A DNA stretch of 64,000 nucleotides from Tubulanus polymorphus (GCF_964204645.1 NC_134031.1:10976088-11040087); one strand, 5' to 3'; positions 12,128 through 60,677 are shown, counted from the stretch's first letter. The notes: a model not told the origin generated them from the letters alone. Translations and numbers: made by a program.

Positions 12128-12144
12128 TAATATAATGAAAAAAA

Positions 12145-12820: not shown

Positions 12821-12899
12821 ATCAACAACTAAAATCAACCACCAAAAAAATTACTTCGAACCACCAAAAATTAATTTTAATAAAATTTTTCCTAAATAA

Positions 12900-14150: not shown

Positions 14151-14209
14151 TTATATGAAAATGAAGAAGCTAATAGTGATTACGAGTATGATGATATTGA
14201 TTTTCTGTT

Positions 14210-17200
14210 TTAATGACCGTAAGGTAATGTTTTTATTCCGTCACCCAAAATATCTTTTATCATCTTTTATCGTCGAATGGATTTAAGCTAGTTTTTTCAA
14301 CACCATTAATGTACATCTCGTGATCTTCTGATCTTAAACAATTCATTTTATGTTTCATTACAATTGAGTTATATAAAGACTTTATATAATCTTGAAATTC
14401 TACATGTTTATCAACCACATGCTTTGTTATTCCTTTTAACTTTTTTGCTTCATGATCTTTTGTTCTATAACTATAATTTACCAGGAATTTTCTTATTATC
14501 ATTGCTAAATAATTCATGATCTTTTGGATAATTGCTAAAATCAAAATGATGTTTTAATGTTTTTAAGTCTTTTGTTATGTCATTTGTCTTGATTTTTAGT
14601 ATGTTCGCATCCGTATTTTTGGGGATTAATGGGAACTCAGAATTGAATGTTCCATCATCTGTTGATAAATCATAAACATAATCTGTTGGGTTATATATTT
14701 CAAATAAATCTTTAACTTCTTCTGTTAATTCTTTTTCTACATGCCTTAAATTTTTACTTTTAACTATTACATGAATATAGAATTCATCATTATATTTAAT
14801 TGCAAAATCTTTAGGATTATTTACATGTATTCCATAACATTGTGATGATTTCATAACATCTATCTATTTTAAATGTTTTATTATGATAAACTTCTTCACA
14901 ATATTTTTTAATTCTTTCTAATAATTTCTAATCTTGATTGCATAAATACTAACAATATTTATTACCCCAAACATAATTATAAACACCTGCTGAACCATCA
15001 CCCATAAAAAATCCTTTAATAAAATATTCTTTTCTAATGTTTCAGGTTCTCTATTATAAATATTATCAATTATTTCATCAAATGACATATGATTCATTCT
15101 TTGGAAAAATCTTTTATGTAATAATTCATCTCCAATTTTTATTCATCTCCAGTTGGTTTTATTTCGTTTAATTAAACTGTGGTCTTCAGTAACATCTACA
15201 AACCCTAATTTAGTTCTAACTCTATAAATCTTTTTATTTGTTTTATGTCTAATTATATTCTTTAATTTTTCTATCCATTTCTTGTCCAAACATCCATTAA
15301 TCCGTTTATTTATATTAATTCTTTTTCACCATATGAAATATAAAGTTTATTTTGATGAGGTATTATATCTGAAATTCTTCTAATTAATATTTGATTATTA
15401 TATTTTAATAATCTTGGGGTATCAGCTGTTACAGAATCAAAATATAATATTTCAATATGTTTTTCCCCAAAAAGTGGTTGTAGAACATTATAATAAAAAT
15501 CATACATTAATAATTTTGACACTTCTAAAACAGTTGAACCTATAAATATAGGTTTATTAAATTTCATTGACGTTCTTTTTAATTTTACTGCTGTTAAATA
15601 ATCTTCAAATCTTTTATTTCCTCAATGTCTAGGACTTGATTGTAAATGTCTTAATCGTTCAGAATCATTTACTAATTCAATATGATTTCTATTTCTAATA
15701 TTTTCACATGTTTTTCCATAAAAACTATTATTCATTAATTTAAAAAAATCTTTTTCAAAATCTGTTTTTGATATGGTTCTCTGTTGAGTATGGAAATCTA
15801 TATATTTTTCTAACCACTTCGATTGATTAAATTCAATATATCTATGTACTTTCTTTAATTTCATTCCTTGTTTTAGATAAAATTTTAACTTTCTATAATG
15901 AACAATATACTTATATTTATTATTTTGTATTAATATTAATTTTTCTGTAAAAACATGATCTTTCGGTTTTATTTTTTTCTGATATTCACTTAAATAACTG
16001 TCATCTACGGCTAAATGTTCTGGGCAATATGGTAAATTTCTTGTTTTTAACTTTATGTTATCAGGATATTCTAAATCAACTATAAAGAAATAACCAATTG
16101 GTGCATCATCTTCTAAACTCATAATTGCGCTTTCTCAATTAGTTTTATCATCATTTTCAACTTCTGTTTATATAAAATTTTTATATGGTTGAGGTTGCAT
16201 CATTGCCCAACCATATAAATTATTAGTGTCAATATATAATAATTTATATTCATCATTTGCTTTAAAATGTCTATCTCCCATAACACCACTAATTCAACCT
16301 CTAATTGATTTTTCAAATAATAAAACCATGTCTGGTTCTTTTAATAAATCTAATTCTACATTTGTATATTTTAAACCACATTGCCAGGTTAAACCAGGAC
16401 TAGAGTAGCAATAACAAGGATCAACATTAAAATGATTTAAATTAACTTCTCTAAATTTTTCAAATATATCAGCCAATATCATAACATCTGATTTTAAGTG
16501 TAAATCTACTAATTCACCATGATTTTCTATCTTAAAATGATTCCAAAATATTTAATGTTCTATTAAAAACTTCATCTTTCACAAACTCCTCTTTTAATTG
16601 ATCATAAAATTGTTCTTTTGTTAATTCTGTTACATTAAAATCATCATGTGTTTTATGCGCCTTTATATCTCAATAATTTAAATTCTAGTTCATTTGGGTA
16701 ATAATGTCGAGTTATTACAAAATCATTATCAACTAAACTTTTTGCTAAATTATCTAATGAACTTGCTAACAATCTATAAGAATCTAAAAATCTAATGCAA
16801 CCAAATTGAAATGAAATATAATTTTAAGATGTTTTAGCTTATAGTTTAAAATTATAATTTCTTACATTTAAATCATTTATAGCATTATATTCTTCTATTT
16901 CTTGATTAATTGTGCCTAATTTTCCTGATAATTGTTTCGTAAATAGATGAGTATCATAACCCGATAAATTATGAAATAATATTGGTACGAAATTAACTTT
17001 CTTAGCTTGTAAATTGCAATCTTTATGAGCAGCTCCACGATATTTGGAATTTTAATGATCATGATCTCTAACTTTTTTATCAAATGAATAAAAACGTTTT
17101 TCACACTTACAACAATGAGTTGCATAATTAAAATCAATTTCATCTTCTTTTGTTATAACTATTCTTTTGTTTTTGTTTAATAATTTTGCAAAATCACTTT

Positions 17201-24735: not shown

Positions 24736-27700
24736 ATGGAAGAAAATAAGTACTACTGTTCAACATGTAATATCAATATAGATAAATCCCAAAAATCAAG
24801 ACACAATAAAACTAAAACACATTTAGAGAATAAATTGGAATTATAATATGAAGATGATATATTAGAAACTAAATTAGATGAATTAAAGAATGAAAAAGAA
24901 ACATACAAATGTGATACATGTAATCAATCATTCAGTGATAAAAGATATTATAATGAACATTTAAAATCAAAAAGTCATATTAGAAATAAGAATAATGATA
25001 TTTTAGGTGAGGATTATTTTGATGAAGATAATGATAAGAAACAGATGACAATTAAAAGAATAAGAAATAAATTAAACAATAAAAGACCATACATGGAAGA
25101 TGTAAGAAATTATATTAATTCATTAGATAATAAAAAAGATATAGAAATAACCGAAGCATTTAAAAGTGATATTGGTCCAGCAGCTATTGAGTTTAAATTT
25201 CATAAAGGGAAAACATTAGAAGAAAATAAAATACATTTAGAAAATATGAAAAATATTATAAAAATAATAACTGATGTTGAATACCCTAAATTTAGTATAT
25301 CTTCTAAAGTAAAGTTTATAAAATCTGAAGATAAACCAATATATAATATAAATTCTCATTCACAACATATTATATCTAAACAACATATAGATGAAAAATT
25401 AGATAAATGTTATAATGAAGTAAAAACTAAAATAGAAGAGAAATATTTTGAAGGGTCTGGTTTAATATTTGATGAGATAATATTTATGACTTTACATGTT
25501 TATAACACAAAATATAATAAGTTAGCTAAATCAAAACCAATAGATGAAAATAATGTATCATATTATAAAGAACCAGATATTGAAGCATCAAGTTATATTA
25601 AACCACCATTTAAAACTAATGCTGTTATAAATGTACAAAATTTTGATGATAAATGTTTTCTATGGACAATTATTAGTTGCTTACATCAAACAGAAGATAT
25701 TACACATAGTTTTAGATTAACAAATTATAAACCATTTGAAAATAATTATAAGATAGATAAGTATCCAGTTAGAATTAAAAATATCCCAAAAATAGAAAGA
25801 GATGATAATTTAAGAATAAATGTATTTGATTTAATCAAATTACCAAAAACAAAAGGCAACAATATAAAATATTTTACATTAGAACCTTTATACCTATCAA
25901 AAGAATATGATTCAAATGATGTTATAGATATATTATATTATGAAAATCATTATATGTGGATTAAACAAATCGATTTATTCTTTAGAACAGAAAGTGATCA
26001 TCATCGTAAAATTTATCTATTGAAAATGTTTACATAGATTCAGTAATGAAAGTACATTATTAAATCATAAACAATTATGTGAAAATCATGATTATTGTAA
26101 ATTAGTTTTACCAAATGAAAAAGATAAAATATTAGAATTCAAAAAATATGATTACAAGAATAAAGTACCATTTGTAATATATGGAGATTTTGAATCATTA
26201 AATAAAGAATTAACTGATCAAGATAGAAAAGAAATATATTATAAAAGAAAGAAATTAAATTCTAATGAAAATGATTTTTCAGATGAACCACCAAAAACAA
26301 ATACAATTAAAAAGATTCATCAATCAGCTGCTGCTTTCGGGTTGTATATAAAATCTGATTATCCAGAACTAATTGAAAGTGAATATTATCATTATAGAAA
26401 TGAAAATGTTATCAATCATTTTTGTGACTTATTAATTGAATATGAAATAAGATTTAGTAAATTATTGAATACAAATTATAATGACAGAAGAAGATAAAGA
26501 AGAATTTGTTGCAGGTAAATGTTATTATTGTGAAAAGATATTTAATTATAAAGATAAAAAAGTAAGAGACCATGATCATTTGAACGGAAAGTTTAGAGGT
26601 GCAGCGCATGAGAATTGTAATTTGCAAGCAAAGAAAATACATTTTGTACCAGTTATATTTCATAATCTATCAGGATATGACGCACATTTATTTATCAAAC
26701 AGTTATGCCATTAAATAGAAGAAATCAATAATGAAATAGAAAGATTAAATTCAAATAGATCAAAAGATAAAATACCAACTTATAAATTTAAAATGTTAGC
26801 TAGAACATCTGAGAATTATATATCATTCCAATTTGGTTGCCTAAGATTTATAGATTCATATAGATTTTTAAATAGTTCATTGGATAACTTATCAAAATCA
26901 TTAGTTGATGATGAATTAAGAATATTAAAGCAACACTACCCAAATAATGATGATTTGCAATTAATGAGATATAAAGGTGCAATTCCATATTCTTTCTATA
27001 AAAATCATAATGATTTTAATATAACTGAATTATTGAAAGAACAATTCTATGATGAATTAAAAAATGAATATGTTAAAGATGAAGTATATAATAGAACATT
27101 GAATATTTGGAATCATTTTGGAATGAAAAATCATGGACAATTAGTAGATTCATATCTAAAATCAGATGTATTATTATTAACTGATATATTTGAAAGGTTT
27201 AGAGATGTAAACCTAAAATATTTCAATATTGATCCTTGTCACTGTTATTCTAGCCCAGGTTTAACATGGGATTGTGGATTAAAATTTACAGATATAAAAA
27301 TGGATTTGTTAACAAATATAGATCAATTATTATTATTTAAAAAATCTGTAAGAGGAGGAGTTTCAGGTGTATTAGGTGATAGATATTTCAATGTAAATGA
27401 TAACCCTGGATATAAGTTATTATATATAGATGCAAATAATTTGTATGGTTGGGCAATGATGGAACCACAACCTTATGGAGTATTTGAAATAAGTGAAGTT
27501 TTACAACATGAAAATAATGACAAATTTGATTGGAAGAAAAGAATCCTAGATATTGCAGATGATTCAGATACTGGTTACTTCTTTGTTGTAGACTAGGAAT
27601 ATCCTGAAAACATTAAATTTAAATCTAGAAATCTAGCATACTGTCCCGAACATAGAACTGTAACTCATGAAGAATTATCAAATTATCAAAAAAGAATTAA

Positions 27701-28709
27701 ACCGGAAAATCATATTCATACAGAAAAGTTAATGGTAACTCAAGAAGATAAATATAATTATGTAGTACATTATAGAATGTTAAAGTTTTATCTAAAACAA
27801 GGAATGATCCTAAAAAAAGTACATAGATATATTTCATTCAGTCAATCTAAATGGTTAGAAAAATATATAGATTTTAACACCAAACAGAGAACTGAAGCTA
27901 AAACTGATTTCGAAAAAGATTTCTTCAAGTTAATGAATAATGCATTCTATGGTAAGACTTGTGAAAATATTAGAAATAGAAATGATATTGAGTTAGTTAG
28001 TAATGGTAAAAGGATAAGGCATTTACAATCATATCCTAAGTTTTTAGGTAACAGAATATTTGATGAAAATTTAGCTGCAGTTAAAATGAGAAGAACTTCT
28101 ATGAAATTTAATAAACCAATTTATGTTGGTGCTTCAGTTTTAGAAATATCAAAGCTATTGATGTATGAATTCTATTATAATGTATTACAACCTCATTTTG
28201 GAGAAAAGCATATAGAAATTCTATACTTTGATACTGACAGTTACATATTAAAGATAAAAACTAATAACATAACTGATGATTTAAAAACATTAAAACATCA
28301 TTTTGATTTTAGTAACTATCCTAAAGATCATGAATTGTTTAGCAATGATAATAAAAAGCGACCCGGGAAGTTTAAGGATGAATTAGGTGGTGAAGAAATG
28401 ATTGAATTCATTGGTATAAGATCGAAAATGTATTCATATAAAACTAAAGAACATGAAGCTAAAAAGTTAAAAGGAATTACTAAAAGTGTAGTAGAAAATA
28501 ACATTCATTTCAAAGATTATATCAATTGTATATTCAATGAAGAAGTAAGAAAACATAAGATGAAATGTTTAAGATCAGAAGATCACGAAATGTTTATTGA
28601 AGAGATAGAAAAGGTTAGTTTGAATCCATTTGATGATAAAAGATATATTTTAGATGATGGAATTCATACAGTTGCATATGGTTGCAATTTAGATGAATCT
28701 AAAATTTAA
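24736..28709 (+). pseudogene. polB: Protein-primed DNA polymerase B, intein-free allele, with N-terminal Zn fingers and EndoVII-like domain
   Basis: YGDFES, VRDHDHLNGKFRGAAHENCN, FHNLSGYD, FIDS, YIDANNLYGWAM, KLMNNAFYGKT, YFDTDS, GIRSKMYS, KKLKG. Confidence 0.95.
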
Positions 28710-38997: not shown

Positions 38998-39003
38998 CTT
39001 ATT

Positions 39004-42440: not shown

Positions 42441-42498
42441 AGTAGTTATATAGGGTCACTTTGGGACCGAGTGAGAAGTGAGGAGCAGTGAGGAGCAA

Positions 42499-43577: not shown

Positions 43578-44013
43578 ATACGTTTAATTAACGGTCTAAT
43601 AATATGTATTGTTTTTCTAACTTTATTATCCACGATTAAATGAAAATAAACGTGTGTCAATAGAAGTCAATTGTCTTTGTCATTGTTTCGTCGGTCATTC
43701 ATTCCCTTAAAGTTCAGTCATTTCGATATGTCGACTGTCTGTAGCATGATTCCATCAATTGCCTATCAATCAATCCTCTCATTGTTGGCCTTATCTACAC
43801 GATCAAATTCCATCCTTTAGTGTAATCCAAAGCGACTATGATAATTAACATATCAATAAACGAATAACGATGTTCAATTTAACATAATATTTGATAAACT
43901 TTATTATATTAGTAAAGGATAAATATTCTATATAAATAGTAAATGTACAAAAAAATTCATTATTTAAATTCAAAAAAATAGTGGTGACTAGAGGAGAATA
44001 ATAAAACGCGTGT

Positions 44014-46676
44014 CTAAAAACCGTAGGGAAGCGTGTTAAATCTGTTCGTTGGATCAAAAGCCCTTTTAGTGTATACGGCGCGATATATTTTTCGCTCGTC
44101 TCTATTAAAAATGGAACATTTTTTGATGTCTCGATTTATCTTGTTTGGAATGGAAACGTACAAATGATCGTATTTTTCACCGACTATAATATCAACCATT
44201 GATTTAAAGTTGACTATTTGTTTATTTCTAAAATTCAAATTAATTCCTTTCACTTTGCATTCCGATGAGAATTTATTGTCACGCGGACTGAAAACACGGA
44301 ATGCATAGTTTTTCGGACCGGCCGAAACGAATTCCGAAATATAGGCACCATCTCCGTATTTATCTGCCAACTCATCGGTCATATCCCCTAAAAAGTTTCC
44401 AGTTGGCGGATCCCATTGATCAGGTTTAACGGTGTAAATGATTGAGTCGGTATCCGTGTAAAGGGTTCGATCCCCTAGTTTCTCCATATAACTATAGAGA
44501 ATTAGTCGAGCGCGGCTAAGGCGACGCTAGTTTTACCGGAGGATTCGACAAATTCGTCGCGTTTTCTGTAGTGCACCCTTAACACCTCTTCGTTACACAA
44601 CAGTAAATCTTGTATCTCCAAACTATCGTCTAAAAGCATGCTGTACATTTCACCGGGGTCTGAAATATATTTAGCAGTGGTTTTGTTTTCATTTTGACCG
44701 AGTTTACCCCACATGCTATTTAAACATAGTTTGGCGACAGTTCGCATGCCCTTCGCCTTCTTTATGTTATTTTCTTCGAGACGGATACCCTCGCGCTCGA
44801 AATAATCGGATAGAAATTGGTCTTTTTCGGCGCGAGTCATATCGGGAGATGGCCACCCGCTAGCTTCGGTTTTTACTTTTAGAAATTTTCCTATATAGTC
44901 TGCAAATAATCCGGTTTCGCTACGTTCCCAATTCCAAATTTCGAATATACCGATAATACGGTATCCCAATTCAACGGCTTTTTGGATCTCTAAACTGACC
45001 CACGTTCCGGTAATAGCACGTTCGTCTTCCGAGTGGCGACACCTTTCGCGTTGATTACTATCTTCAGCGCACGAGCGACACAAAGGAAAGGATAATTTGC
45101 CATTGGCTCTGTATGGAAGGATGGGTAAATATAAGCCCCGAGGTGGTAAAATTCGGCATTTAATCAACCCGTAATAATCTTTGATATCACCGAAATTTTC
45201 AGTTATAACTGTTGGGTGACCTATTGGATAGCTACAACGACTATTAACGTACGGGTATAGCGAACATATGTCAATTAGCCTTCACCTTTTTGTCCAGCTC
45301 GGGGATTCCACACTTGCCGGTGGGGACTCCTGTCGCCTGGTGCAATGCGAGAGCGGCTTCTCGTTGCGGTGATTTTTCGCATTTACGAATTATGTTATAA
45401 CGAGGGTCATTATCGGCTCGCGCCTTCGCCACGACTAGCGCCCTCGCTAGGCATAAATCGTCATCATTATTTATACTGATGACCGATTTCTTTGTTTTTC
45501 GGAACTGTTCAAAGTCAGTCGTTATCCGCTTTTGTCTAGCACCACCGAGAGGCATCCTAATGAGTGTACAATGAAAGATCAGCCCGTCCAAAGATAGATC
45601 TTCGTTAGACTGAAGAACACTAACAATACGCTCGAGTAAATAATCGATAGTGATTTCTTCTAGAGGTACGTAGAAGTATTCGATATTTCTTTGAAGATTT
45701 TCATGTTCTATCGAAATCCTCAACATATCGGTTGGCCGGGCGTCTAACATCTCACTCATTGCCGCTAGGATGTTACTTAAATACTCGCGGAGTATTGTTT
45801 CGTTATCGCGCGCTGTTACGGTATCGTCCTCTTCCTTATTACTATCATCGTCCTTGTCATTGTTGGTAATCACAATAGCCTTGAACCATTCAGTATTCAT
45901 GTTGAATTTACGGCTATGCTGCGTTCCGGTCTGTAAAATAAATATAAAATTGTTGAAAAACAATCAGGTTTTTTTTTTTTACACGATCTATCGAATTTGT
46001 TCGATAATACTTACTCTAACTAACTTAATATTCCCTCTAATAATTTCATCGGGACTATTATTATTATGACACAGACGTTTTTGTGTCGAATGCTGGTCAT
46101 TGTCGTCATCGTCCCTGGGTCGTTTCTGAGCCGTAGAACTACAATGTTCCCTATGTATTTTCAGATCGTTTATTTCGGTAAAAGATCTTGCGCAATTAGA
46201 ACATGAGAATTCCTTCGCAACCGGTCGTCGTGGTTTACACGATCTCATGTGCCGCTTAAGATTATCTTTTCGAGCCGATCTTTTACCGCAATTATTACAC
46301 TGAAATACAAATTAAATACATATAAATACAAAACGTATAACGTATATATTATGATCATGATAATATATATATATATATGTCTGAGGATTCTTACCGTGAA
46401 AGCGGTTGACGTAGATGGTTGAGGAGATCACCGAACATTTGATATAGGTTGCTTATCGTCTGGTTGGTCAGAAGTCTGAGCTATCGGTGGCACTCTATCC
46501 TGCGCTACCTGCCGATTATTACAATTTTTCATATGCCGCACTAAATTATCTTTTCTGGCGTGTGCTTTACCGCACTCCAGACATTTGAAACCCTTCTTAC
46601 CCTCATGCATCATCTCATGACGTTTGAGATTGAATTTCGAGGCGAAGGTAGCGTTACAAATGCTGCACGAATACAT
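44014..46676 (-). pseudogene. polB: Protein-primed PolB, type B, with spliced Zn-finger exons and large internal deletion
   Basis: DICSLYPY, KLCLNSMWGK, LYTDTDS, FVSAGPKNY, KVKG; N-terminal NDDDLCLARAL joined directly to motif A near 45275; introns 45931-46014 and 46300-46394. Confidence 0.9.
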
Positions 46677-46695
46677 GATCTATAAAAGAGAACAT

Positions 46696-47229
46696 CTTTG
46701 TTACTTTAAAAAAATATCCAAACCACAAATTTTATAATTGAATATTTTATCAAACCTCTTAGTATTTTCCTATTAAAAATGTACAAACCACATTTTCTAA
46801 AACTTGAAAAATTGTCAAACCGGGTTTTGTAAAATTCTAAACTTTATCATTACGATATAGTTTTTACGGATTTCGTTTTAAACAAACTTTGTTACTTTAA
46901 AAAATATCCAAACCACAAATTTTATAATTGAATATTTTATCAAACCTCTTAGTATTTTCCTATTAAAAATGTACAAACCACATTTTCTAAAACTTGAAAA
47001 ATTGTCAAACCGGGTTTTGTAAAATTCTAAACTTTATCATTACGATATAGTTTTTACGGATTTCGTTTTAAACAAACTTTGTTACTTTAAAAAATATCCA
47101 AACCACAAATTTTATAATTGAATATTTTATCAAACCTCTTAGTATTTTCCTATTAAAAATGTACAAACCACATTTTCTAAAACTTGAAAAATTGTCAAAC
47201 CTGGTTTTGTAAAATTCTAAACTTTATCA
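46696..47229. repeat. 190 bp tandem repeat, ~2.8 near-identical copies, between divergent PolB and ATPase genes
   Basis: Unit starts CTTTGTTACTTTAAAA at 46696, 46887, 47077. Confidence 0.92.
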
Positions 47230-47304
47230 ATTTTTGAAATTCAAAATTATTAAAAGTCGGCTACTACGGATAATCAAAAACCCTAAAACCCTAAAACCAC
47301 TAAG

Positions 47305-47955
47305 ATGGCAGAATACGATGGGCCTAGATATCTCGTGCATCCATTTACTATGCTAGTCTGCGGACCTACATCATCCGGTAAAAGTTGGTTTGTAAAGAAA
47401 CTAATTACCGAAAAACTTATAGAAAAACAACCGGAAAAAATTTATTGGTGTTATGGAGAGGCGCAGCCCGAAATGTTTCAAGAATTGGAAAAATTTGATG
47501 TTCAATTTGTCGAAGGATTTTCTGATGAACTATACGAAAAAATAAACGGTAGTAGTCGCACCTTAATAATAGTCGACGATCTGATGAACGAAGTTGGCGG
47601 TAATGACACCTTGGCGGCGTTGTATACTAAGGGCGCTCATCATAGAAATATTTCTATTATCACTATTGTTCAAAACTTATTTCCTAAAGGGAAAGGTTTT
47701 AGGACGATTAGTTTAAATAGTCATTATATCGCCGTATTCAAAAACGCTCGAGATAGAAACCAAATTCGGGTGTTAGCTCAACAAGTGGGACTAAAAAATG
47801 AAATAGAACAGGCTTTCAAAGATGCTACAGAAGAACCACACGGTTATTTGTTATTAGACTTTAAACCGAAAACAGATGATAAATGGCGACTAAGGACTAA
47901 AATATTTCCCAGTGATGTATACCACATCGTTTACAAAACTAAGAAAATCCATTAA
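47305..47955 (+). CDS. A32/FtsK-like packaging ATPase
   Basis: HPFTMLVCGPTSSGKS, IIVDDLM, HHRNIS...VQNLF, RTISLNSHY, HGYLLLDF. Confidence 0.93.
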   Translation: MAEYDGPRYLVHPFTMLVCGPTSSGKSWFVKKLITEKLIEKQPEKIYWCYGEAQPEMFQELEKFDVQFVEGFSDELYEKINGSSRTLIIVDDLMNEVGGNDTLAALYTKGAHHRNISIITIVQNLFPKGKGFRTISLNSHYIAVFKNARDRNQIRVLAQQVGLKNEIEQAFKDATEEPHGYLLLDFKPKTDDKWRLRTKIFPSDVYHIVYKTKKIH

Positions 47956-47989
47956 AAGAAAGCTAAGGTCTACTATTTATAAAAGGAAG

Positions 47990-48388
47990 ATGGTTCCTCG
48001 TAACAATAAATCCGTTGATCGGTTAAAAAAGTACGTTCATCATTTTCACGTGTTGGCAAGTTGTAAGAAAAAGCAACGAGAAGCGTTGATCGAATCGGCA
48101 CCAGTAGAACTAATTAACTGTATTTGTGAAATATCTAAAAACAGTTTACTGGGAAATATAGAACATAGCGACAAAGAGAAACGGGTGTTACAACAACATA
48201 AACGATACATTCGTATGTTAGCGAATAAATCTATAGCTGTTAAACATAAAAGGAGAGTTATTTCTCAAAAGGGAGGATTTCTGCCATTCATATTGACACC
48301 TCTCTTGTTGAAACCGATTCTAGAATCTATCGTGACTAATGTTTTAAGTAAAGCCGCGAACAAAGTAATAGATAAAGTTTCGTCATGA
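47990..48388 (+). CDS. Conserved Polinton basic/amphipathic virion protein
   Basis: LINCICEI..N.L.GN, QKGG|FLP adenain-type cleavage motif followed by an amphipathic helix; start uncertain. Confidence 0.7.
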   Translation: MVPRNNKSVDRLKKYVHHFHVLASCKKKQREALIESAPVELINCICEISKNSLLGNIEHSDKEKRVLQQHKRYIRMLANKSIAVKHKRRVISQKGGFLPFILTPLLLKPILESIVTNVLSKAANKVIDKVSS

Positions 48389-49071
48389 AGAACGTAGAGA
48401 AATTGGTTATTCTACCGGAAGCAATGTTACCGCAAGTACAAGCATTCGTAGCTAGTCTACAGGGAAATGAATCTATAACTAAAAAACCAGTTACCGGAAA
48501 TCCGTTAAACGATAACAACCTATCCGATGATTTGAAATATCTAAAATATAACCCGTTGCTACAGCAAGCTATACAAAAAACGGAGCACGATAAACAATCA
48601 CTACCTCGAAAAATTGAAGATATCAACGTCGTTAATAATCCTTATTCGACTGAAAAAATTGTCGAACGTATACCGGTTAAATTCCGGAATAAGTGTAAAT
48701 CGTTATAAACATTTTTCACAGAAAATCCAAACGTTTTGAGATGGAACGAAAAAGGAGAAATAATCTACAAGAATAATTTAATTCCTGGAAGCAATATTTC
48801 TGACCTCGTTTACGTTTCGTTAGTATTAACTACATTAAACCAAAGCTATATTGGATTAGAAGATTATATGTCAGCGATAAACGAACTTAATATTCCTACT
48901 AGCCTAATAAATAATAAAATGTTAAAGAGACGGCTCAAAGGCGAACTTACCGTAGATTTAGATGCGTCGTTGTCTCCAGTAAAAAAGAAGGCAAAAGTAG
49001 ATCAGCGCGGTTCCGGACTGCGTAGTAAGCGAGCTAGGAATGTCGATTTCACCAATTGGCTTAGCTTTTAA
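48385..49071 (+). pseudogene. Conserved Polinton protein, one internal stop
   Basis: ORFs 48385-48708 and 48736-49071 in the same frame; WNEKGEIIY...IPGSNISDL, ELNIP.SLI.N. Confidence 0.7.
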
Positions 49072-49168
49072 TGGCTTCAAAATGCAATTAAAATGTATTG
49101 TTCAATTGTTCGTAGTATTATTGCGCAACTGAACGTGTTCGGGCACGTTTTGATTTCCATTTGATACG

Positions 49169-49696
49169 ATGGTCGTTAACGTGGTGAACATCGTCTCTAC
49201 GGCGTGTTTGAATAGTTCATTAAATCTTACCGATGTCGCTAGAATCTCGCACGATGTAATTTACAACCCTTCCAAGTTTAGCGGGTTAATATGGAAGAAT
49301 CGTAAAATAGAAGGTAATTGTCTATTATTCGGCAATGGAAAGATGGTAATTACTGGGTGTAAAAGTAAATCTAATAGTCGACGGAGTACGAGACAATTTG
49401 CGCGTTTACTGCAAAAGATGGGATACAACGTGAAGTTAAACAACTTCAAAATACAAACAATAACCGGTGTCGTTAGAACTGGTCGGCATATTGACTTGAT
49501 GAAATTTTCGAACTATTGTTGTACAGCGGAATATAACACAGAAATACTCCCCGGTTTAGTGTATATGTGCGAAAATGGAGTTAAATGTATTGTTCATAAT
49601 GGCGGAACCATAATACTAGCCGGCGCAAAACAAACAAAAGAACTACAAAAAGCGTACGAAGAAATTTTATTCTACATCATCTTATGTTCTAAATGA
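49169..49696 (+). CDS. Divergent TATA-binding protein (TBP)-like protein
   Basis: Two TBP repeats: VNIVST..L...LNL, YNPSKFSGLI, LLFGNGKMVITGCKS, ARLLQKMG, FKIQ, EYNTEILPGLVY, GTIILAGAK....KAYE. Confidence 0.85.
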   Translation: MVVNVVNIVSTACLNSSLNLTDVARISHDVIYNPSKFSGLIWKNRKIEGNCLLFGNGKMVITGCKSKSNSRRSTRQFARLLQKMGYNVKLNNFKIQTITGVVRTGRHIDLMKFSNYCCTAEYNTEILPGLVYMCENGVKCIVHNGGTIILAGAKQTKELQKAYEEILFYIILCSK

Positions 49697-49865
49697 ATAA
49701 ATTAATAAAAGGCGTGTTATCACAAATATTTTATTGTAAAAATAAAGATGAATTGGCGAAAATTGTTTTGTTGTTGTTGTTTGGACCGAGACGATCCAAG
49801 TTTTATTTGTAAATTCAATCGAATTAACTGCGTGAGCACGTGTTGTAACGGAAATACCGTTATCA

Positions 49866-50948
49866 ATGAAGGCGGAGCTGAAAAAATTCCTAGCCAATCA
49901 GTATTATGGTATCGAAAAACCAGCCAGTTTTTCGAGCGCAAACGCTCTACACAGAATATGTCGGCAAGAAAATAAAAACATTTCGCTTAATGAGATAAAG
50001 GATTGGCTATCCGAACAAGAAGTTTACACATTACACGCCAAAGTGAGGAAAAGGTTTCCCAGAAATAAAACAATAGCCTATCGAATGAACGAACAATTTC
50101 AAATAGATTTGTGCGACGTTTCAAATATTTCCAAACACAACGACGGTATCAAGTTTCTATTGACGGCTATAGATGTTTTATCGAGATACGGTTTCGCCGT
50201 TCCTTTGTTGAATAAATTCAACTCGACAGTTGTGGAAGGATTGAAAAAGATAATTAAACATAGAAAACCTAGCGTTATACAATCTGACGCCGGGACCGAG
50301 TTCCTCGGTTCAAAAACACAGAATTTTCTCAGAAACGAGGGTATAAGTTTTTTCAGAAGTAAAAACGAAGTAAAATGCGCTATTGTCGAACGATGGATAC
50401 GTACATTAAAATCAAAAATGTATAAAATATTCTCGCATAGACATTCGTATAGATACATCGATGTACTGGACGATATAGTTCGATCATATAACAATACATA
50501 TCACCGCAGTATAAAAATGGCTCCAATAGACGTTAACCAGTTAAACGAATACATAGTTTTCAAAAACCTATACGGACCCCACCGCATAGTAAATAGAGCG
50601 AAATTCAAATTTCGAGTGGGTGATACTGTTAGAATAAGCGAACTAAAAGGACAGTTCCAAAAAGGTTATTTACCCGGTTGGAGTACAGAGTTGTTTGTTG
50701 TAACTAAAAGAATTAATCGCCAACCGTGTGTATACAAGATTAAAGATTTACAAGATGTTGAAATAGATGGCGTTTTTTACGAATACGAAATGATAAAAGT
50801 CAATAAAAGGGATGATGTTTATAAAGTCGAATCGATCATTAAATCCCGTGGAAAGGGTTCGAGAAAACAATATTTGGTGAAGTGGTATAATTACGCTGAT
50901 AAATTTAATTCCTGGGTAAACGCAAAAGATATTAAAAAACTGAAATGA
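49866..50948 (+). CDS. rve integrase with C-terminal chromodomain (intact)
   Basis: QFQIDLCD, AIDVLSRY, IQSDAGTEF, KCAIVERWIRTLK, YKVESII..YLVKWYNY..KFNSW. Confidence 0.95.
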   Translation: MKAELKKFLANQYYGIEKPASFSSANALHRICRQENKNISLNEIKDWLSEQEVYTLHAKVRKRFPRNKTIAYRMNEQFQIDLCDVSNISKHNDGIKFLLTAIDVLSRYGFAVPLLNKFNSTVVEGLKKIIKHRKPSVIQSDAGTEFLGSKTQNFLRNEGISFFRSKNEVKCAIVERWIRTLKSKMYKIFSHRHSYRYIDVLDDIVRSYNNTYHRSIKMAPIDVNQLNEYIVFKNLYGPHRIVNRAKFKFRVGDTVRISELKGQFQKGYLPGWSTELFVVTKRINRQPCVYKIKDLQDVEIDGVFYEYEMIKVNKRDDVYKVESIIKSRGKGSRKQYLVKWYNYADKFNSWVNAKDIKKLK

Positions 50949-51758
50949 TTGGTAGTGATTTTTACGTGTATCTCAAAAGCGACGCAAGCGTTGATCTTTA
51001 CCCCGATAACATTCAACATAGTTTCAAAGTTCGATTGAGAGAATCGATTTCGCTCGAGGGTAAATGGGTTTGCACCTTGCACCAAATAAACTTTATGCTA
51101 GATTTCGATAACGTCGAAGATGGACGATTTGAATTGGCGTCACCGGAGCATGGAAAACAATACTTACGTATACCGAAGGGTCGATATCACACTATTGCGC
51201 AATTAATCACCGTTATACAAACGGAAATCAACAAGTGGTTTTACGATAAAGTAATTATAGGTTTCGACGAATTAAGTCATAAAGTTAATGTGAAGTTTTA
51301 CGACGAGTGTTCGTTAACTTTTACGAACGATATAGCGTGGATTTTAGGCTTCAAATCTGGTATACCGGTAAACGATATACCTAACGACCTTCGTCAGGGT
51401 TCGAAGAAAAATGGACCATTTGTAGATAGTAATGGTACCAAAACTATTTACAAATACATCGAAGTCACAGCGTCTAGATGTGTCGATATAAACGTCGACT
51501 ATCATAATTTGATGATATATAGCGATGTTATAGAACCCCAACTAGTCGGCGATCAGAGCGCAAATCTTTTGCGTATGGTACATTTAAACACGATAAATTT
51601 TGGAAAGGTTATTGTTTAACAAATTACAATATTTTCCAGTGCAAAGGAGTAATTTTCAGACTATAGAAGTCTTTATAAGAAGAGAATCGGGTAAAATACC
51701 TGTTTTAAAAAAAGGAAAAGTTAATCTTGTTTTACATTTTAAAAAGAAAAATATATTA
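50945..51758 (+). pseudogene. Minor capsid (penton) protein, frameshift near 51610
   Basis: FYVYLKSDAS..YPDN...FKV.L, IPKGRY, LMIYSDVIEPQLVGD...LLR, LHF. Confidence 0.85.
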
Positions 51759-51760
51759 AT

Positions 51761-52168
51761 ATGAGGGCTATTTGCGAAATAGATCACGATGTCTGTTGTA
51801 GATATTACGCAAATCAAAGCGGTGCCGGAGTCGACGTGTACACATCATCGCCTATACAAGGCGGTGCTGGATTTGCTTCTGTTTTAGGCGGTCTCGCTCG
51901 ACCGGCGATACCCCTATTGAAAAATATGGCTAAACGAGCGGTGCCTCATTTACTAAGAACGGGTTTGCACGTTGCGAGCGATGTCGTAGGTGGTAAGAAT
52001 TTTGCCACAGCCATTAAAGATCGCGGATTAGAAACAATGGGTCGTATTATCCGGGGTAAAGTGCGAACCGGTACAAAACCATTAAAAGGTCAAAAGAGAA
52101 AACGAAAACAGCGGATTATTTCCACAGGCAAACGTATAAAGAGAAGTGTTAGCGGCGAAGCGTATTAG
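51761..52168 (+). CDS. Core/membrane-lytic precursor-like virion protein
   Basis: YYANQSGAG, IQGGAGF glycine motifs, amphipathic helix, basic tail; lies between penton and MCP. Confidence 0.75.
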   Translation: MRAICEIDHDVCCRYYANQSGAGVDVYTSSPIQGGAGFASVLGGLARPAIPLLKNMAKRAVPHLLRTGLHVASDVVGGKNFATAIKDRGLETMGRIIRGKVRTGTKPLKGQKRKRKQRIISTGKRIKRSVSGEAY

Positions 52169-52173
52169 ACAAG

Positions 52174-53484
52174 ATGTCGTTATTAGTACACAAAGACTCG
52201 CCCCTGTGTGTCAAATCCGAATTGGATTTGTTTACTATCCCCGGTACCCAGATAAACTACAAAGAATGCCGTTACGTTAGTTACGAACCCTCTACATCGA
52301 TCAATGATTCGGGACCTATCGTCTTCAGGATACCGAAAACAGAACAATATTTAGATTTAAACGTCACTTATTTGAAACTACAATTTAAAATAGTCAACGG
52401 TGATGGCACTAATGTGGCGCCCGATAAATACGTGTCGATGATTAATGGCGTCTACAGTTTATTTAGCGACGTTCAAATTACGCTCAATGATCGCGTCGTT
52501 ACGCACGACGGCGGATTGTACCCGTTTAAATGTGAGTTGGAAAATATGCTGAACTATAATTCCGAAACTAAAAATAGCAGTTGGCTACAATGCGAATTAT
52601 ACACTGAAGATGAGGCTGGCAAGAAAAATCATATCGACCCGACGATAGCCGGTGCTAATACCGGGCTGGTTAGAAGAAATAATTACACAAAAAACAGTAA
52701 ACTAATCTGCGCTTATTCTCGATTATACTGCGATGTAATGAGAATGAATAAAATTTTCATCAACAATACAGATATGCAAATTAAACTGAATAGATCGAAG
52801 GAATGTTTCGTTTTACTTTCTCCCGCGGAAAACGCTGATTTTCGTATAAGAATAGAAAGCGCTCAACTTTATTAGCGAAAACTAGAATTAGATAGCTCGG
52901 TTTTGGTTGCGCACGCAAAGGCATTAGAAAAAAACACGGCTAAATACTACTTTTAAAGAACCGAATTAACTTCATTGAATATTCCTAGAGGCCATAGAAC
53001 GATCGTAAAGGATTCCGTTTTTGTGGGTGAAATTCCAAAGGCTATCGTTTTAGCGCTCGTAGACGACGATGCGTTGAGCGGGAATATACGAAAAAATCCC
53101 TTTGATTTCCGAGACTTTTCATTGAGTTATGTAGGTGTTAGTGTCGATAACAATCACGTACAAAATTCGCCGTTAATTATAGACTCCCGCGGTGATGGAT
53201 GTGAAGTGTATCATAGTTTATATTTAGCTAGGGGTCTATTGTATAAAAATGAGGGTATAGGAATTAAACGAGAACATTTTAAAAACGGCAACTTTATTTG
53301 TTGTTTTAATATATCGCCCGAATACGGTGATCAACCGCACTTGTCACTTATTAAAAGGGGTTCGTTAAAAATTGAAATGAGATTTGACGAAGCTTTACCC
53401 CACAACGTCAATTTAATCGTTTACGCCGTTTTCGACGAATTATTACAAGTAACTAAAGAACGTCATATCGAAATTGATTATTAG
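52174..53484 (+). pseudogene. Major capsid protein (hexon-like), two in-frame stops
   Basis: KSELDLF..P.TQ, YLDL, SLFS.V.I.LN, NPFDF, GNFICCFN..P, G.L.IE.RF...L. Confidence 0.9.
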
Positions 53485-53489
53485 TAACT

Positions 53490-53957
53490 ATGTTGTACAC
53501 GAATCAGATTTTAGAATTTATGAAAAAAGACGAGTGTCTACGATCGTGTTTTTTAGGCGTTTTTCCGTGCGACCGACTACCCGATATACATAGTTATCCA
53601 GCTGGTTTTATAGTAAATACCGATTATCACGATCAACCGGGTGAACATTGGTTAAGCATTTATATCAATAAGTTTGGTATCGGTTACTTTTTCGATTCCT
53701 TTGGACAATTACCCAGAACTAACGATGTAATATTAGAAAATTTTCTGGACGAAAATTGTATAGATTGGAAATATAATACTAAAATGTATCAAAACGTATT
53801 ATCCGATGTATGTGGTTATTACGCGATATTTGTACAAATTTACCTATGTCACGGTTTTGAAATAGACGAAATTAAGAAATTATTGTCAAATAAAACTAAT
53901 GATAACGACTATATTGTAAAAAATTTCATCGTAAAATATTTCAAATTAGTAAAATAA
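53490..53957 (+). CDS. Adenain-like cysteine protease
   Basis: FLGVFP.D.LP, IVNTD....PGEHW, FFDSFG, YQ...SDVCGYY (His/Asp/Gln/Cys intact). Confidence 0.93.
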   Translation: MLYTNQILEFMKKDECLRSCFLGVFPCDRLPDIHSYPAGFIVNTDYHDQPGEHWLSIYINKFGIGYFFDSFGQLPRTNDVILENFLDENCIDWKYNTKMYQNVLSDVCGYYAIFVQIYLCHGFEIDEIKKLLSNKTNDNDYIVKNFIVKYFKLVK

Positions 53958-53996: not shown

Positions 53997-54494
53997 TCTC
54001 CCTCCCTCCCTCCCTCCCTCCCTCCCTCCCTCCCTCCCTCCCTCCCTCCCTCCCTCCCTCCCTCCCTCCCTCCCTCCCTCCCTCCCTCCCTCCCTCCCTC
54101 CCTCCCTCCCTCCCTCCCTCCCTCCCTCCCTCCCTCCCTCCCTCCCTCCCTCCCTCCCTCCCTCCCTCCCTCCCTCCCTCCCTCCCTCCCTCCCTCCCTC
54201 CCTCCCTCCCTCCCTCCCTCCCTCCCTCCCTCCCTCCCTCCCTCCCTCCCTCCCTCCCTCCCTCCCTCCCTCCCTCCCTCCCTCCCTCCCTCCCTCCCTC
54301 CCTCCCTCCCTCCCTCCCTCCCTCCCTCCCTCCCTCCCTCCCTCCCTCCCTCCCTCCCTCCCTCCCTCCCTCCCTCCCTCCCTCCCTCCCTCCCTCCCTC
54401 CCTCCCTCCCTCCCTCCCTCCCTCCCTCCCTCCCTCCCTCCCTCCCTCCCTCCCTCCCTCCCTCCCTCCCTCCCTCCCTCCCTCCCTCCCTCTC
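53997..54494. repeat. (TCCC)n microsatellite, ~490 bp, perfect
   Basis: Uninterrupted tetranucleotide run after an A tract. Confidence 0.97.
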
Positions 54495-54667
54495 TCTGTA
54501 GAGTCCTTATAAGAACTGATGGTGTAGAAGTCCTTATAAGAACTGATGATATAAGCATATAAGCGAGGAGCTTGGCGGTTCATACACTGACTCTTTCTGA
54601 GAAATTTAGGTTGGCCTTGATAAAGGCCGTTTTAATTGGTTTGTTCTTAGTTTCGTTCACCAAGTTA

Positions 54668-56297: not shown

Positions 56298-58619
56298 TTA
56301 ATGGCCATAAGGTAATGTTTTTATACCATCATCTAAAATATGCCTTTTATCATCAAATGGATTCAAACTAGCTTTTTCAAATTCATTAATGTACATTCTC
56401 AAGATTTTCTGATCTTAAACAATTCATTTTATGTTTCATTACGATTGAGTTATATAAACACTTTATATAATCTTGAAATTCTATATGTTTATCAACCACA
56501 TGTTTTGTTATTCCTTTTAACTTTTTAGCTTCATGATCTTTTGTTCTGTAACTATACATTTTACTTCTTATCCCAACAAATTCAATCATTTCATCACCCC
56601 CTAATTCATCTTTAAATTTACCAGGAATCTTTTTATTATCATTGCTAAATAGTTCATGATCTTTGGGATAATTGCTAAAATCAAAATGATGTTTTAATGT
56701 TTTTAAGTCTTTTGTTATGTCATTTGTCTTGATTTTTAGTATGTACGCATCAGTATTGAACGCAATTAATGGAAATCCACAGCTAAATGTACCATCTTCA
56801 GTTGATAAATCATAAACATAATCTGTTGGGTTATGTATTTCAAATAAATCTTTAACTTCTTCTGTTAACTCATTTTCTACATGGCTTAAATTAAAGCAAT
56901 TTGGTTTAGATTTAATCAATCTAATATTCATATTAAATCCTAATGAATTGCATAATATATTCAATCCTGATATAGCAACTTTTCCTTTTCGAGCTAAAGA
57001 TATCGTTTTGCGGTTTTTGAAACTTTTTGAACCATCTGCAGCATAGAACCCAATGAAGAACCATTTTCTTAAATTATTTTTTGCATTTAATACATAATCT
57101 GGAACTATCTTTTCTTTTGTTGAAGTATTACTTTTCACTATTGCATGAATATAGAATTCATCATTATATTTTATAGCAAAATCTTTAGGATTATTTACAA
57201 GTATTCTATAAACTGCTGATGATTTCATAACATCCATGATTCTAAATGTTTTATGTGAAAAAACTTCTTCACAGAATTTCTTTATTCTTTCTAATAATTT
57301 TAAGTCTTGATTGCATAAATACCAACAATATTTATTACCCCAAACATAATTATACACACCTGCTGAACCATCACCCATGAAAAATCCTTTAATAAAATAT
57401 TCTTTTTCTTGTAATGTTTCAGGTTCTATATTATAAATATTATCAATTATTTCATCAAATGACATATGATTCATTCTTTGGAAAAATCTTTTATGTAATA
57501 ATTCATCTCCAATTTTTATATCAGTTGGTTTTATTTCATTGCCATTTCGTTTAATTAAACTATGATCTTCTGTAACATCTACAAACCCTAATTTTGTTCT
57601 AACTCTATAGATTTTCTTATTTATTTTATGTCTAATAATATTCTTTAATTTTTTCCATCCATTTCTTGTCCAAACATCCATTAATTCATTTATTTGTATT
57701 AATTCTTTTTCACCATATGAAATATAACATTCATTTTGTTTTGGAATTATTTCTGAAATTCTTCTTATCAATATTTTATCATTAAATCTGAATCATATTG
57801 GGGTGTCAGCTGTTACAGAATCAAAATATAATATTTCAATATGCTTTTCCCCTAAAAGTGATTGTAAAACATTATAATAAAAATCATACAATAATAATTT
57901 TGATACTTCTAAAACAGTTGAACCAATGAGTATAGGTTTATTAAATTTCATTGACGTTCTTTTTAATTTAACTGCTGTTAAATAATCTTCAAATCTTTTA
58001 TTTCCTAAATGTCTAGGGCTTGATTGTAAATGTCTTAATCTTTCAGAATTATTTACTAATTCAATATCATTTCTATTTCTAATATTTTCGCATGTTTTTC
58101 CATAAAAACTATTGTTCATTAATTTGAAGAAATCTTTTTCAAAATCTGTTTTTGATATGGTTCTCTGTTGAGTATTGAAATCTATATATTTTTCTTATCA
58201 CTTCGATTGATTAAATTCAATATATCTATGTACTTTCTTTAATTTCATTCCTTGTTTTAGATAAAATTTTAACATTCTATAATGAACAATATAATTGTAT
58301 TTATTATTTTGAGTAAGTATTAATTTTTCTGTAAAAACATGATCTTTAGGTTTTATTTTCTTCTGGTATTCACTTAAATAACTATCATCTACAGTTAAAT
58401 GTTCTGGGCAATAAGGTAAGTTTCTTGTTTTAAACTTTATATTTTCAGCATATTCTAAATCAACTACAAAGAAATAACCAATTGGTGCTTCATCTTTTAA
58501 ACTCGCAATTGCGCTTTTCCCAATCAGTTTTATCACCATTTTCAACTTCTGTTAATATAAAATTTTTGTATGGTTGAGGTTGCATCATTGCCCAACCATA
58601 TAAATTATTGGCGTCAATA
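56298..58619 (-). pseudogene. polB: Protein-primed PolB (3' half) containing a full-length intein (copy 3)
   Basis: IDANNLYG, MNNSFYGKT, YFD-[intein]-TDAY, GIRSKMYS; 5' part truncated at a SINE. Confidence 0.93.
56755..57819 (-). mobile_element. 355-codon intein with LAGLIDADG homing endonuclease; single nonsense codon at position 9
   Basis: Block A SVTADTP, block B VTEDH, LAGLIDADG blocks FIKGFFMGDG and FFIGFYAADG, block F VYDLST, terminal FN then Thr+1; absent in the 28221-28241 allele. Confidence 0.95.
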
Positions 58620-58620
58620 T

Positions 58621-58694
58621 ATGGTTTCACTAGGATTCGAACCCTCAATCTCTCACTTGGGAGTCAAACACCTTATCCACCCTGCCACAGGACA
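58621..58694 (-). mobile_element. tRNA-derived SINE head (pseudo-tRNA)
   Basis: Minus strand has A box TGGCAGGGTGG and B box GGTTCGAATCC at tRNA spacing; stems pair poorly. Confidence 0.6.
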
Positions 58695-59092
58695 GGACGC
58701 GTCTTTTATCGTTAGTGGGAGTACGCGACACGGCGAGTGGCGATTGCTACTATCATCTGGTGTTATCTTACAGTAAGTAATTTTAAGTTTTAAATAGGAT
58801 AGAGAGTGCATAGATAGAATCTACTCGGAAAGAATGAGTGTTATATTACTATCAGAATTCTACATTTCGATTAGAAGCTGTTAGTTGTCGAATCTGATAG
58901 AAGATGAATTTTATGTGCGAAAAAAAGTAAAAAATATGTAAATAATAATAATAATCAACAGAATTACAAGAGGGTTTTCGACGAAAGTCAGAAAACCCTA
59001 ATGATGATGATTATAAACCTATTATACCAGAAAATAAGTCAAATGTTAAAGTCATTGAAAATAAATCTAAATTATTATTTACGGATTAAAAA

Positions 59093-60062
59093 ATGATCAA
59101 AAAAGAACAATATCTAAGAGATTTACATTATAATCCAGAGAGTGAAGTATCATATTCTAGTGTTTCAGAATTATGGGATAAAATAAGTTATGTAGATCAA
59201 CAGTGGCAAGGAGATTTAATTGATATGAAAAATGTTAAGAAAGATGATGATGATTATTGGTGGTTATTGAATATAATTGATATTTTTAGTCGTTATATAT
59301 GGAGCTTCCCACTTTATAGAAAAGATGCTGTACAAACATCAAATGTTTGAAGAAAATTTCTTTCGGATGATAAACTAAAACCAGAAAAAATACAATTTGA
59401 TGATGGAAAAGAATTTGATAATTCACTTGTTCATGAACTCTTAGACAATCATAATATTAAATATTTTTCAACAAAATCGGATAAAAAAGCAGCAGTTGTT
59501 GAACGATTTAATAGAACATTAAGATCAAGAATGTGGAAATATTTTACAGCAAATAATACTTTTAAATGGATTGATGTTTTACGAAAATTGATGGAAGGAT
59601 ATAATAATTCTTATCATTCTTCTATTGGAATGAAACCTGTTGATGCTAGAAAACCTGAAAATGCTGAAATTATTTGGAATAATTTATATGGAGCATTTCT
59701 TGTAGATGATTTTAGTGAACCTAAATTTAAAGTTGGTCAAAATGTTAGAATTTTTAAGTATAAAAAGATATTTGATAAAGGATACGATCGAGAAATATAT
59801 ACTAGAGAAATATATAAAAAAGGTAATAACAACAAAACCATATGTCTATAGATTAGAAGATTTAAATGGTGAAGAAGTTGATGGGTATTTTTATGAAGAA
59901 GAATTGAGTTTAACTACTGAAAATCTAGAACAAGAATATAAAATTGAAAAAGTATTAAAAACAAAAACTGTTAAAAGAAAAAAATATTCTTTAGTAAAAT
60001 GGGTTGCATGGCCAGATAAATTCAATGAATGGATATTATCAAGTAAAATTAAAAATATATAA
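59093..60062 (+). pseudogene. Type-A rve integrase with chromodomain, internally deleted
   Basis: QQWQGDLIDM, IIDIFSRY, IQFDDGKEF, VERFNRTLR, LVKWVAWPDKFNEW. Confidence 0.88.
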
Positions 60063-60677
60063 ATGAATAAGGAATTATTTATATTTGAGCCTCGATATAT
60101 GTTAATTTCTGGTGTAACAAATTGGGGAAAAACTTATTTTATATTAAATTTATTAGAAACTGTTTATAAAAACTATTTTGATAATATAGTATTATTTTGT
60201 CCAAAATATGAATTTAATCAAACTTATGATAGAAATATTACTAAAAATAATAAATTTATTATATTAGATCCTAAAACAGTAAAAGAAAATTTAGATAATT
60301 GTATTAAAGTAGCAATTGATGTTTATAAAGGATCAAATACATTATTCATTATAGATGATTGCGCAAATTTACATGATTCAAAAGTTAGAGAAAGTGAGTG
60401 TATTTATGTTATTTAGCTTTTTTCTGGTAGACATTTTAGGATAACAACTTGGGTTTTAAATCAAAAATATAATTCAATTGTTAAAGATTTTAGAGAAAAC
60501 ATTAGATTTTTAGTTTTATTCTACAATAAAGATAGAAAATCGATGAAAAATGCGCTTGAGGAAAATGATATTATTCCCCATGATTTACATAATGAATATA
60601 TGGATAAATTGAAAAATAATAAAAGATCAAAATTACTATTTCGATTACAGCACCCATTTAAATATGAATTTATTTAA
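60063..60677 (+). pseudogene. Packaging ATPase, frameshifted
   Basis: GVTNWGKT, FIIDD; homolog of 37306-37917. Confidence 0.88.

Follow-up and report, generated by a model that had tools for sequence, protein, structure and literature searches.

A decayed LAGLIDADG intein in the active site of a Polinton DNA polymerase from a probable animal genome

The insert, its site and its domains

Inteins are described in reviews as absent from metazoan genomes (PMC5784728; PMC8529194). An insert in the polymerase gene of a Polinton element, located in a stretch of 64,000 nucleotides which was analysed as a whole (the window), raises the questions of whether this insert is an intein, from which lineage it derives, whether the genome carrying it is that of an animal, and whether it moves among Polintons. 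On the basis of the sequence comparisons, the most probable reading (probability of approximately 0.8) is that of a decayed LAGLIDADG intein which splits the D-T-D motif of a Polinton protein-primed polymerase (pPolB), likely in an animal, with the intact members of its family predicted to splice and likely to home into empty copies.

The insert comprises 1065 nt (355 codons; Table 1) and is flanked by EKHIEILYFD on its N-terminal and TDAYILKIKT on its C-terminal side, so that it splits the sequence YFD↓TD (the arrow marks the insertion point). An empty polymerase in the same window (27597-28706, plus strand) reads through without interruption (EILYFD-TDSYILKIKT), and the boundaries of the insert are therefore exact. 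The motifs S1-VTADTP, T83-E-D-H86, GFFMGD150G, GFYAAD262G and VYD337LST occur in succession, with the terminal N355 followed by Thr+1. The site corresponds to pol-c, the insertion point in motif C known from archaeal and Mimivirus PolB (PMC549080), with YFD↓TDA in the focal polymerase and mostly YGD↓TDS in its relatives. The first-pass annotation had placed a LAGLIDADG intein exactly at this YFD↓TD site, with which the insert, motifs and ends agree, the coding strand being the minus strand. It had further described the sequence as open but for one TGA. This is correct for the intein, where the single stop is codon 9 (57795-57793), and incorrect for the host polymerase, which incorporates two more stops (58195-58200) and frameshifts near 58515 and 56397, and is truncated at 58622.

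Table 1. Coordinates of the intein, its host polymerase and associated features in the window
Feature	Position	Strand	Basis
Intein, 355 codons (HINT splicing domain interrupted by a LAGLIDADG endonuclease with two motifs)	57819->56755	minus	Profiles and model
N-terminal splicing region (Ser1, block B TEDH), limits approximate	57493..57819	minus	TIGR01445 residues 2-88; all-beta in the model
LAGLIDADG endonuclease region (D150 and D262 kept), limits approximate	56890..57492	minus	Profiles, model, I-DmoI matches (rmsd about 3 A)
C-terminal splicing region (VYD337L, FSCGFPLIAFN355), limits approximate	56755..56889	minus	Sequence, model
N-extein, mid part of Polinton pPolB ending in EILYFD; two stops, one frameshift, upstream end lost	57820..58622	minus	77 % nt identity to empty copy
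C-extein, opening with Thr+1 (TDAY); frameshift near 56397	56298..56754	minus	Sequence comparison
tRNA-like high-copy repeat, B-box-like GGTTCGAATCC, truncating the polymerase gene	58623..58775	minus	Sequence; 507 reads with loose ends at 58621
Degraded chromodomain integrase of retroviral type, from the same family of elements	59007..60062	plus	Chromo match; 76-91 % nt identity to rve integrase 38095-39086
Broken A32-type packaging ATPase	60063..60673	plus	Pox_A32 E 1.1e-5
Second intein copy, same site, in another broken pPolB (about 14200-17400)	14615..15435	minus	89.9 % nt identity over 815 aligned nt
Related pPolB without intein; empty site between 28232 and 28233	24847..28706	plus	DNA_pol_B_2 45.4 bits

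Profile comparisons placed the NCBIfam model of the intein N-terminal region (TIGR01445) on the insert with 25.8 bits, exceeding the cut-off of 24.5, and the Pfam domain LAGLIDADG_3 likewise above its cut-off (E 1.5e-7), while the Pfam domain Intein_splicing gave an E of 7.5e-8 at 32.8 bits, under its cut-off of 35.8. A protein database search yielded 202 homologues at E<=1e-3 (top 3e-136), with PI-PkoII as the top solved sequence. All class 1 splicing residues are present (Ser1, Thr83/His86, Asp337, Asn355 and Thr+1), and the residues follow PMC549080. The penultimate residue is Phe in place of the usual, though not obligatory, class 1 His; among 22 full-length relatives this position is occupied by His (17), Lys (4) or Ser (1), and Lys is common here in the giant-virus relatives.

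The AlphaFold model of the intein (mean pLDDT 93.4, pTM 0.92; 66-row alignment) is matched by Foldseek first to the TliVMA intein (E 2e-16, TM 0.68) and then to PhoVMA, PI-PkoII, PI-PfuI and PI-SceI as whole matches, and its middle part to I-DmoI. D150 is situated on a helix of residues 136-150 and D262 on a helix of residues 248-262. The search for a HINT fold by profile and structure prediction, as proposed in the first-pass annotation, thus returned one (TIGR01445 over its cut-off; solved inteins at E 2e-16), and as modelled the insert is an intein composed of a HINT domain plus a LAGLIDADG endonuclease. A chance open reading frame or an assembly artefact is ruled out by the second copy, the read depth and the intact relatives, and an Rfam search of the window found no group I intron.

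The intein family of Polinton polymerases and its origin

Full-length inteins occupy the corresponding site in ten clusters (90 % identity) of Polinton polymerases, with 38-60 % identity to the focal intein. The seven best full-coverage matches in long Polinton-type exteins are P0002 (60 %) and P0003, P0004, P0005, P0006, P0010 and P0011 (40-48 %), with P0159, P0168 and P0223 completing the set; P0002, P0003, P0004, P0010 and P0011 represent uninterrupted polymerases of 1500-1700 aa. Ser1, TxDH, both LAGLIDADG acids, VYD, the last Asn and the +1 residue are kept in 22/22 full-length database inteins of Polinton polymerases. The intein is rare, with 2/120 best matches of the empty extein being filled. 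The polymerase class found in the window bears an EndoVII/HNH domain.

The Polinton inteins form one clade in each tree, including 15/15 rows among 211 (FastTree 0.972; 8 near-duplicates removed first) and 10/10 among 60 rows (support 96/87), with an SH-aLRT of 100 among 54 rows (C20, quick tree). Within the main polymerase class the intein tree broadly mirrors the extein tree, which indicates that the invasion is old and that much of the spread has been vertical. A recent jump into the present host is ruled out by this old clade. The jump into this particular element and host proposed in the first-pass annotation is not supported in that form, the intein being a member of an old clade which extends over about ten Polinton polymerase clusters; the co-infection envisaged there is conjectural. 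In the separate intein and extein trees that it had called for, giant-virus PolB inteins are among the nearest non-Polinton relatives, and the Polinton inteins form their own clade, which broadly follows the extein tree.

Mimivirus-type giant-virus PolB inteins resemble the focal intein in their pol-c site (YGD↓TDS), their Ser...Asn/Thr+1 residues, their length of about 350 aa and their LAGLIDADG endonuclease (PMC549080). They differ from it in the extein, here the protein-primed polymerase of an integrated, multicopy Polinton, and in that the present inteins constitute a clade of their own beside the giant-virus sets. The nearest non-Polinton inteins are 35-40 % identical to the focal intein, and the best viral loci are PolB inteins of giant-virus metagenome-assembled genomes (MAGs), likewise at 35-40 %. 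The named matches of the structure search, in phycodnavirus, Pandoravirus, Marseillevirus and Megavirus polymerases, share 22-31 %, with the Megavirus PolB intein at only 26 %, a value which rules out Mimivirus as the direct donor. Locus searches with single-protein queries gave no match. Those with an alignment (A3) covered the best 80 of 516 viral, 5 genome and the best 80 of 293 metagenome loci, with identities of 30-40 % throughout; YGD↓TDS was the site at each of the first 85 junctions extracted, none of which was a filled Polinton relative. A search of a phage collection gave one weak match.

Whether the donor was a virus of eukaryotes or a phage depends on which relatives stand next to the Polinton clade. 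When five jumbo-phage-like PolB inteins are included, these are recovered as its sister (99/96; FastTree 0.905), and three T4-like phage polymerases share the Polinton C-terminal signature F-x-T/C/S-G-x-x-L-I/L-x-x-N, so that a bacteriophage PolB intein rather than a giant-virus one could be the source. However, the jumbo-phage branch is a long one (1.07) with a similar, AT-driven composition, the alternative grouping with giant-virus and T4-like inteins is not rejected in that tree (p-AU 0.34), and once the long branch is removed the Polinton clade joins the signature group under the C20 mixture (SH-aLRT 95; quick tree with one unrelated long row inside). The signature itself is present in 23/23 Polinton inteins, 9/176 other PolB inteins, 3/3 T4-like inteins and 28/158 loci, and in 0/9 jumbo-phage-like and 0/8 topoisomerase inteins. 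Furthermore, the best viral-contig matches are giant-virus MAGs, and a eukaryotic virus shares a cell with Polintons, which a phage does not. A phage donor is accordingly rated as unlikely, and a giant-virus PolB intein is judged the most likely donor, at somewhat better than even odds. The Mimivirus or Imitervirales donor named in the first-pass annotation is not singled out, as the Polinton inteins are a separate clade whose sister is, depending on the tree, a set of giant-virus and T4-like phage inteins or the jumbo-phage-like inteins. About 11/18 bases are common to giant-virus and Polinton sites at the insertion point and 13-15/42 beyond it, so that ordinary allelic homing cannot account for the first jump.

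The wider family extends to other proteins. The T4-like phage polymerases P0014, P0319 and P0322 have inteins which group with giant-virus PolB inteins, a grouping that likely reflects transfer between a phage and a eukaryotic virus. Inteins of the same family are found in type II topoisomerases at TDQD↓TDG (P0068, P0083, P0084, P0087, P0089, P0108, P0109 and P0112); judged from the sequences, this site is a D↓TD look-alike of the polymerase site, and the inteins there represent a jump between unrelated proteins. A pol-c intein of the family also occurs in the green alga Chloropicon primus, in a protein with the annotation DNA polymerase delta (P0077, P0156).

Genomic setting, copies and host

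The focal copy is dead, translation through the stop and the broken exteins being impossible. The Polinton hallmarks are present, with PF03175 on the empty copy and on P0002, and rve, chromo and Pox_A32 domains alongside. No inverted pair was found around three tested elements, which are decayed and rearranged; the missing terminal repeats point to broken copies, and do not speak against membership of the Polinton family. A double jelly-roll capsid had no match in Pfam, and the Atlas look-alikes of a piece of a sister element (35112-35633) are capsid clusters at 0.96-0.97, a value to be taken as a lead only. ARAGORN found no tRNA at the tRNA-like repeat which truncates the polymerase gene, and this repeat is likely a SINE. 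The intein resides in a gene of an endogenous virus and not in one of the host.

At least four copies of this AT-rich Polinton family, in both orientations and with breaks and rearrangements, lie between positions 7000 and 64000 of the window, with other repeats among them. A different Polinton (42915-53957) encodes a pfam03175-type polymerase (44017-45963), an ATPase, a chromodomain integrase and an adenain-like protease; genes for TBP (49154-49693; Pfam E 1e-34) and for a tandem PC4 (42915-43574) also lie within it. The CpG observed/expected ratio is 0.27-0.40 in the polymerase genes of the AT-rich family (24847-28706, 56386-58622) versus 1.68 in the other Polinton (44014-53957), which suggests a differing methylation history or age of the two families. 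A weak match to the histone 3' stem-loop (54587-54633; 27.4 bits, cut-off 34) is situated just beyond a RING-finger ORF. Further repeats include a piggyBac-type transposase remnant (3501-5557), two GIY-YIG remnants with weak Pfam matches, which we take to be Penelope-like (6204-7073 and 41967-42455), a 238-nt palindromic high-copy repeat (8968-9205) and a (CTCC)125 microsatellite (53998-54496).

The second intein copy in the window is more decayed than the focal one, with frameshifts, stops and a 234-nt deletion which removes the second LAGLIDADG motif. Over 263 codons (158 synonymous and 631 non-synonymous sites), the two copies are separated by 33 synonymous and 40 non-synonymous substitutions. 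The resulting dN/dS of 0.27, compared to 0.18 and 0.07 for the exteins, indicates that the intein was under purifying selection while the elements were active; by part, the value is highest in the endonuclease (0.35 versus 0.23-0.25).

In one run of raw DNA reads (X6), which is possibly the source of the window itself and hence not independent, the depth across the intein is 145-255 (mean about 211; seven bins, 85 % likeness) and that across the N-extein about 308 (five bins, 85 % likeness), while the five lowest of 30 bins over positions 1-20000 have a depth of 5-7 (95 % likeness). If these lowest bins are single-copy, the genome would contain roughly 30-40 intein copies, given that the thresholds differ and the baseline is uncertain, and on the same assumption roughly two thirds of the close polymerase copies would be filled. 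At least 27 among the reads listed skip the intein exactly or nearly (19 and 8), showing that close empty alleles also exist. A marine metagenome run (X5) yielded short pieces only.

All named extein matches are from animals, namely Mytilus, Araneus and Macrosteles, with Argiope and Stegodyphus also in their clusters. The filled P0223 derives from a 2.5-kb contig filed under a symbiont assembly from the clam Ctena, and is most likely clam host DNA; together with P0472, P0010 and P0011 it forms a tight extein clade with the Mytilus protein. On the other side, the window contains no host gene, HNH-bearing Polinton polymerases are abundant in metamonads (Trichomonas) and oomycetes (PMC10748475), viral PolB inteins are on record for algal and labyrinthulomycete genomes (PMC10710043), and one member of the first-ranked Atlas look-alike of the capsid piece bears the label Parabasalia. 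The intein could thus be real while its host is a protist or some other eukaryote outside the animals, or while the DNA is a contaminant, in which case the point concerning animal genomes would fall. Against this stand the animal origin of all named extein matches, the grouping of the clam-derived P0223 with Mytilus, the content of the window (the element with adenain, TBP, integrase and pfam03175 genes, the piggyBac and Penelope-like remnants and the SINE-like repeat) and a read depth which fits a repeat-rich genome of some hundred Mb. A non-animal source is therefore considered improbable, and on the sequence matches the host of the intein-bearing Polinton is likely an animal.

Probable homing among Polintons and its implications

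On the extein tree, filled polymerases are scattered among empty ones, and the nearest relative of the focal extein (P0195; 86 %) is empty. In a tree of 51 exteins, which omits P0228, the nine filled ones require eight changes (mean of 8.4 for shuffled labels) and a single filled clade is rejected (p-AU 1e-75). The filled P0139 and the empty P0142 are 99.2 % identical outside the insert. The P0003 cluster comprises 136 members on contigs of up to 1 Mb, and among the 15 listed, seven filled and six empty alleles span the site. In an alignment of the protein sequences of seven filled and five empty alleles (12/136 members), the two sets are 98-100 % identical along 1000 residues upstream, fall to 73 % and 68 % in two windows of 15 residues each at the site and reach 84 % up to +45, and 9/9 fixed differences fall within -6..+44, among 1116 columns. 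As judged from these alleles, the local tract likely reflects homing, with co-conversion from a donor in a different subfamily; it could alternatively have been left by ordinary recombination between subfamilies. In this cluster (P0128, P0130-P0135) the empty alleles have three active-site sequences, YTDCDS, YFDTDA and YGDTDA, in polymerases otherwise 96-100 % identical, with Cys replacing the conserved Thr in the first, and these divergent sites may represent cut-resistant alleles.

The intein has also moved between polymerase classes. P0004 belongs to another class, matching the pfam03175-type polymerase of the window with an E of 1e-54 and the focal class not at all. Its intein groups beside those of the focal copy and P0002 (96/92), and although its exclusion from this group is not rejected (p-AU 0.28), the intein crossed between classes under either placement.

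It is also conceivable that the intein splices while its endonuclease no longer homes, the present distribution being due to one ancient gain, vertical descent and repeated exact loss. The parallel between intein and extein trees in the main class, the peak of dN/dS in the endonuclease part and the loss of one LAGLIDADG motif from the second window copy would be in accordance with this. Both endonuclease motifs are, however, retained in all 22 full-length members at identities down to 38 %, the fixed differences cluster at the site, there are pairs of filled and empty alleles which are nearly identical, P0004 calls for a horizontal transfer, and 1 kb would have to have been lost exactly on many occasions. 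This explanation is consequently held to be very doubtful.

Splicing of such an intein involves an acyl shift at Ser1, attack by Thr+1 and cyclisation of the Asn. In the favoured account of a splicing and homing intein, the precursor would be translated whole, and Ser1, the TxxH block, Asp337, Asn355 and Thr+1 would perform class 1 splicing and restore the polymerase active site; as replication of the element would require splicing, exact retention would be selected. Either in the nucleus or while elements replicate together, the endonuclease would cut the empty D↓TD of sister Polintons; a filled copy, dispersed or co-replicating, would then serve as the repair template and pass on the intein plus flanking codons. 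Loss, divergent empty sites and re-invasion would then give rise to the patchy pattern. The lineage would have started with one old jump from an RNA-primed PolB, for which a giant virus is the leading candidate, followed by at least one later crossing into the distant polymerase class of P0004. Filled elements may be favoured over empty ones when both occupy one cell, an advantage of the kind proposed for Bodo saltans virus (PMC5871332).

Several known systems are comparable. Inteins in endogenous viral polymerases on nuclear scaffolds have likewise been described in Klebsormidium, Tetrabaena and a labyrinthulomycete (PMC10710043); those hosts are algae or protists, while the present intein belongs to a mobile family that occurs in many copies, some alleles being filled and others empty, and the words Polinton, metazoa and animal do not occur in the main text of that paper. 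The HNH domains of Polinton pPolB2 are also homing-type nucleases embedded in a Polinton polymerase (PMC10748475), and the endonuclease domains of Polinton pPolB have been proposed to stem from 'intein invasions' (PMC11071308). The HNH domains are fixed and have no described splicing domain, whereas here a full HINT intein is situated in the active site and its presence varies by allele; 'intein' and 'LAGLIDADG' are absent from the main text of PMC10748475. Within the literature searched, with Repbase, InBase and subscription journals outside its scope, no intein is described in a Polinton or in any protein-primed polymerase, which agrees with the first-pass annotation in that no prior description was found. 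The supplements of three papers contained neither 'intein' nor motif words, a result of little weight as control words for the polymerase were equally absent. Chilo iridescent virus, an invertebrate iridovirus, has an intein in its ribonucleotide reductase. This is likewise an intein in an animal DNA virus (cited in PMC549080 and PMC5784728), and it differs in ending with Gln and in belonging to a large, non-integrating virus, neither germ-line nor in a Polinton polymerase. The pol-c LAGLIDADG intein is thus found in a new kind of extein, and the kingdom of its host genome is likely new as well.

A broader proposition, which is considered slightly better than even, is that of a working intein lineage in animal genomes, of giant-virus origin, which is still driving through the Polintons in the germ lines of several marine invertebrates, crossing polymerase classes and selecting cut-resistant sites. 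If true, a transposon family would contain a natural gene drive, and animals would have their first resident intein lineage. The view that inteins are absent from metazoans would be qualified, as they would be present not in host genes but in tens of integrated mobile-element copies. The pol-c intein in a pPolB would furthermore be a trace of Polintons which once shared a cell with an intein-bearing large virus. Since filled as well as empty copies are scattered through a single genome, homing, co-conversion and resistance can be counted with nothing more than assemblies. Ser/Thr inteins and LAGLIDADG nucleases with an adaptation to animal cells might also serve as tools.
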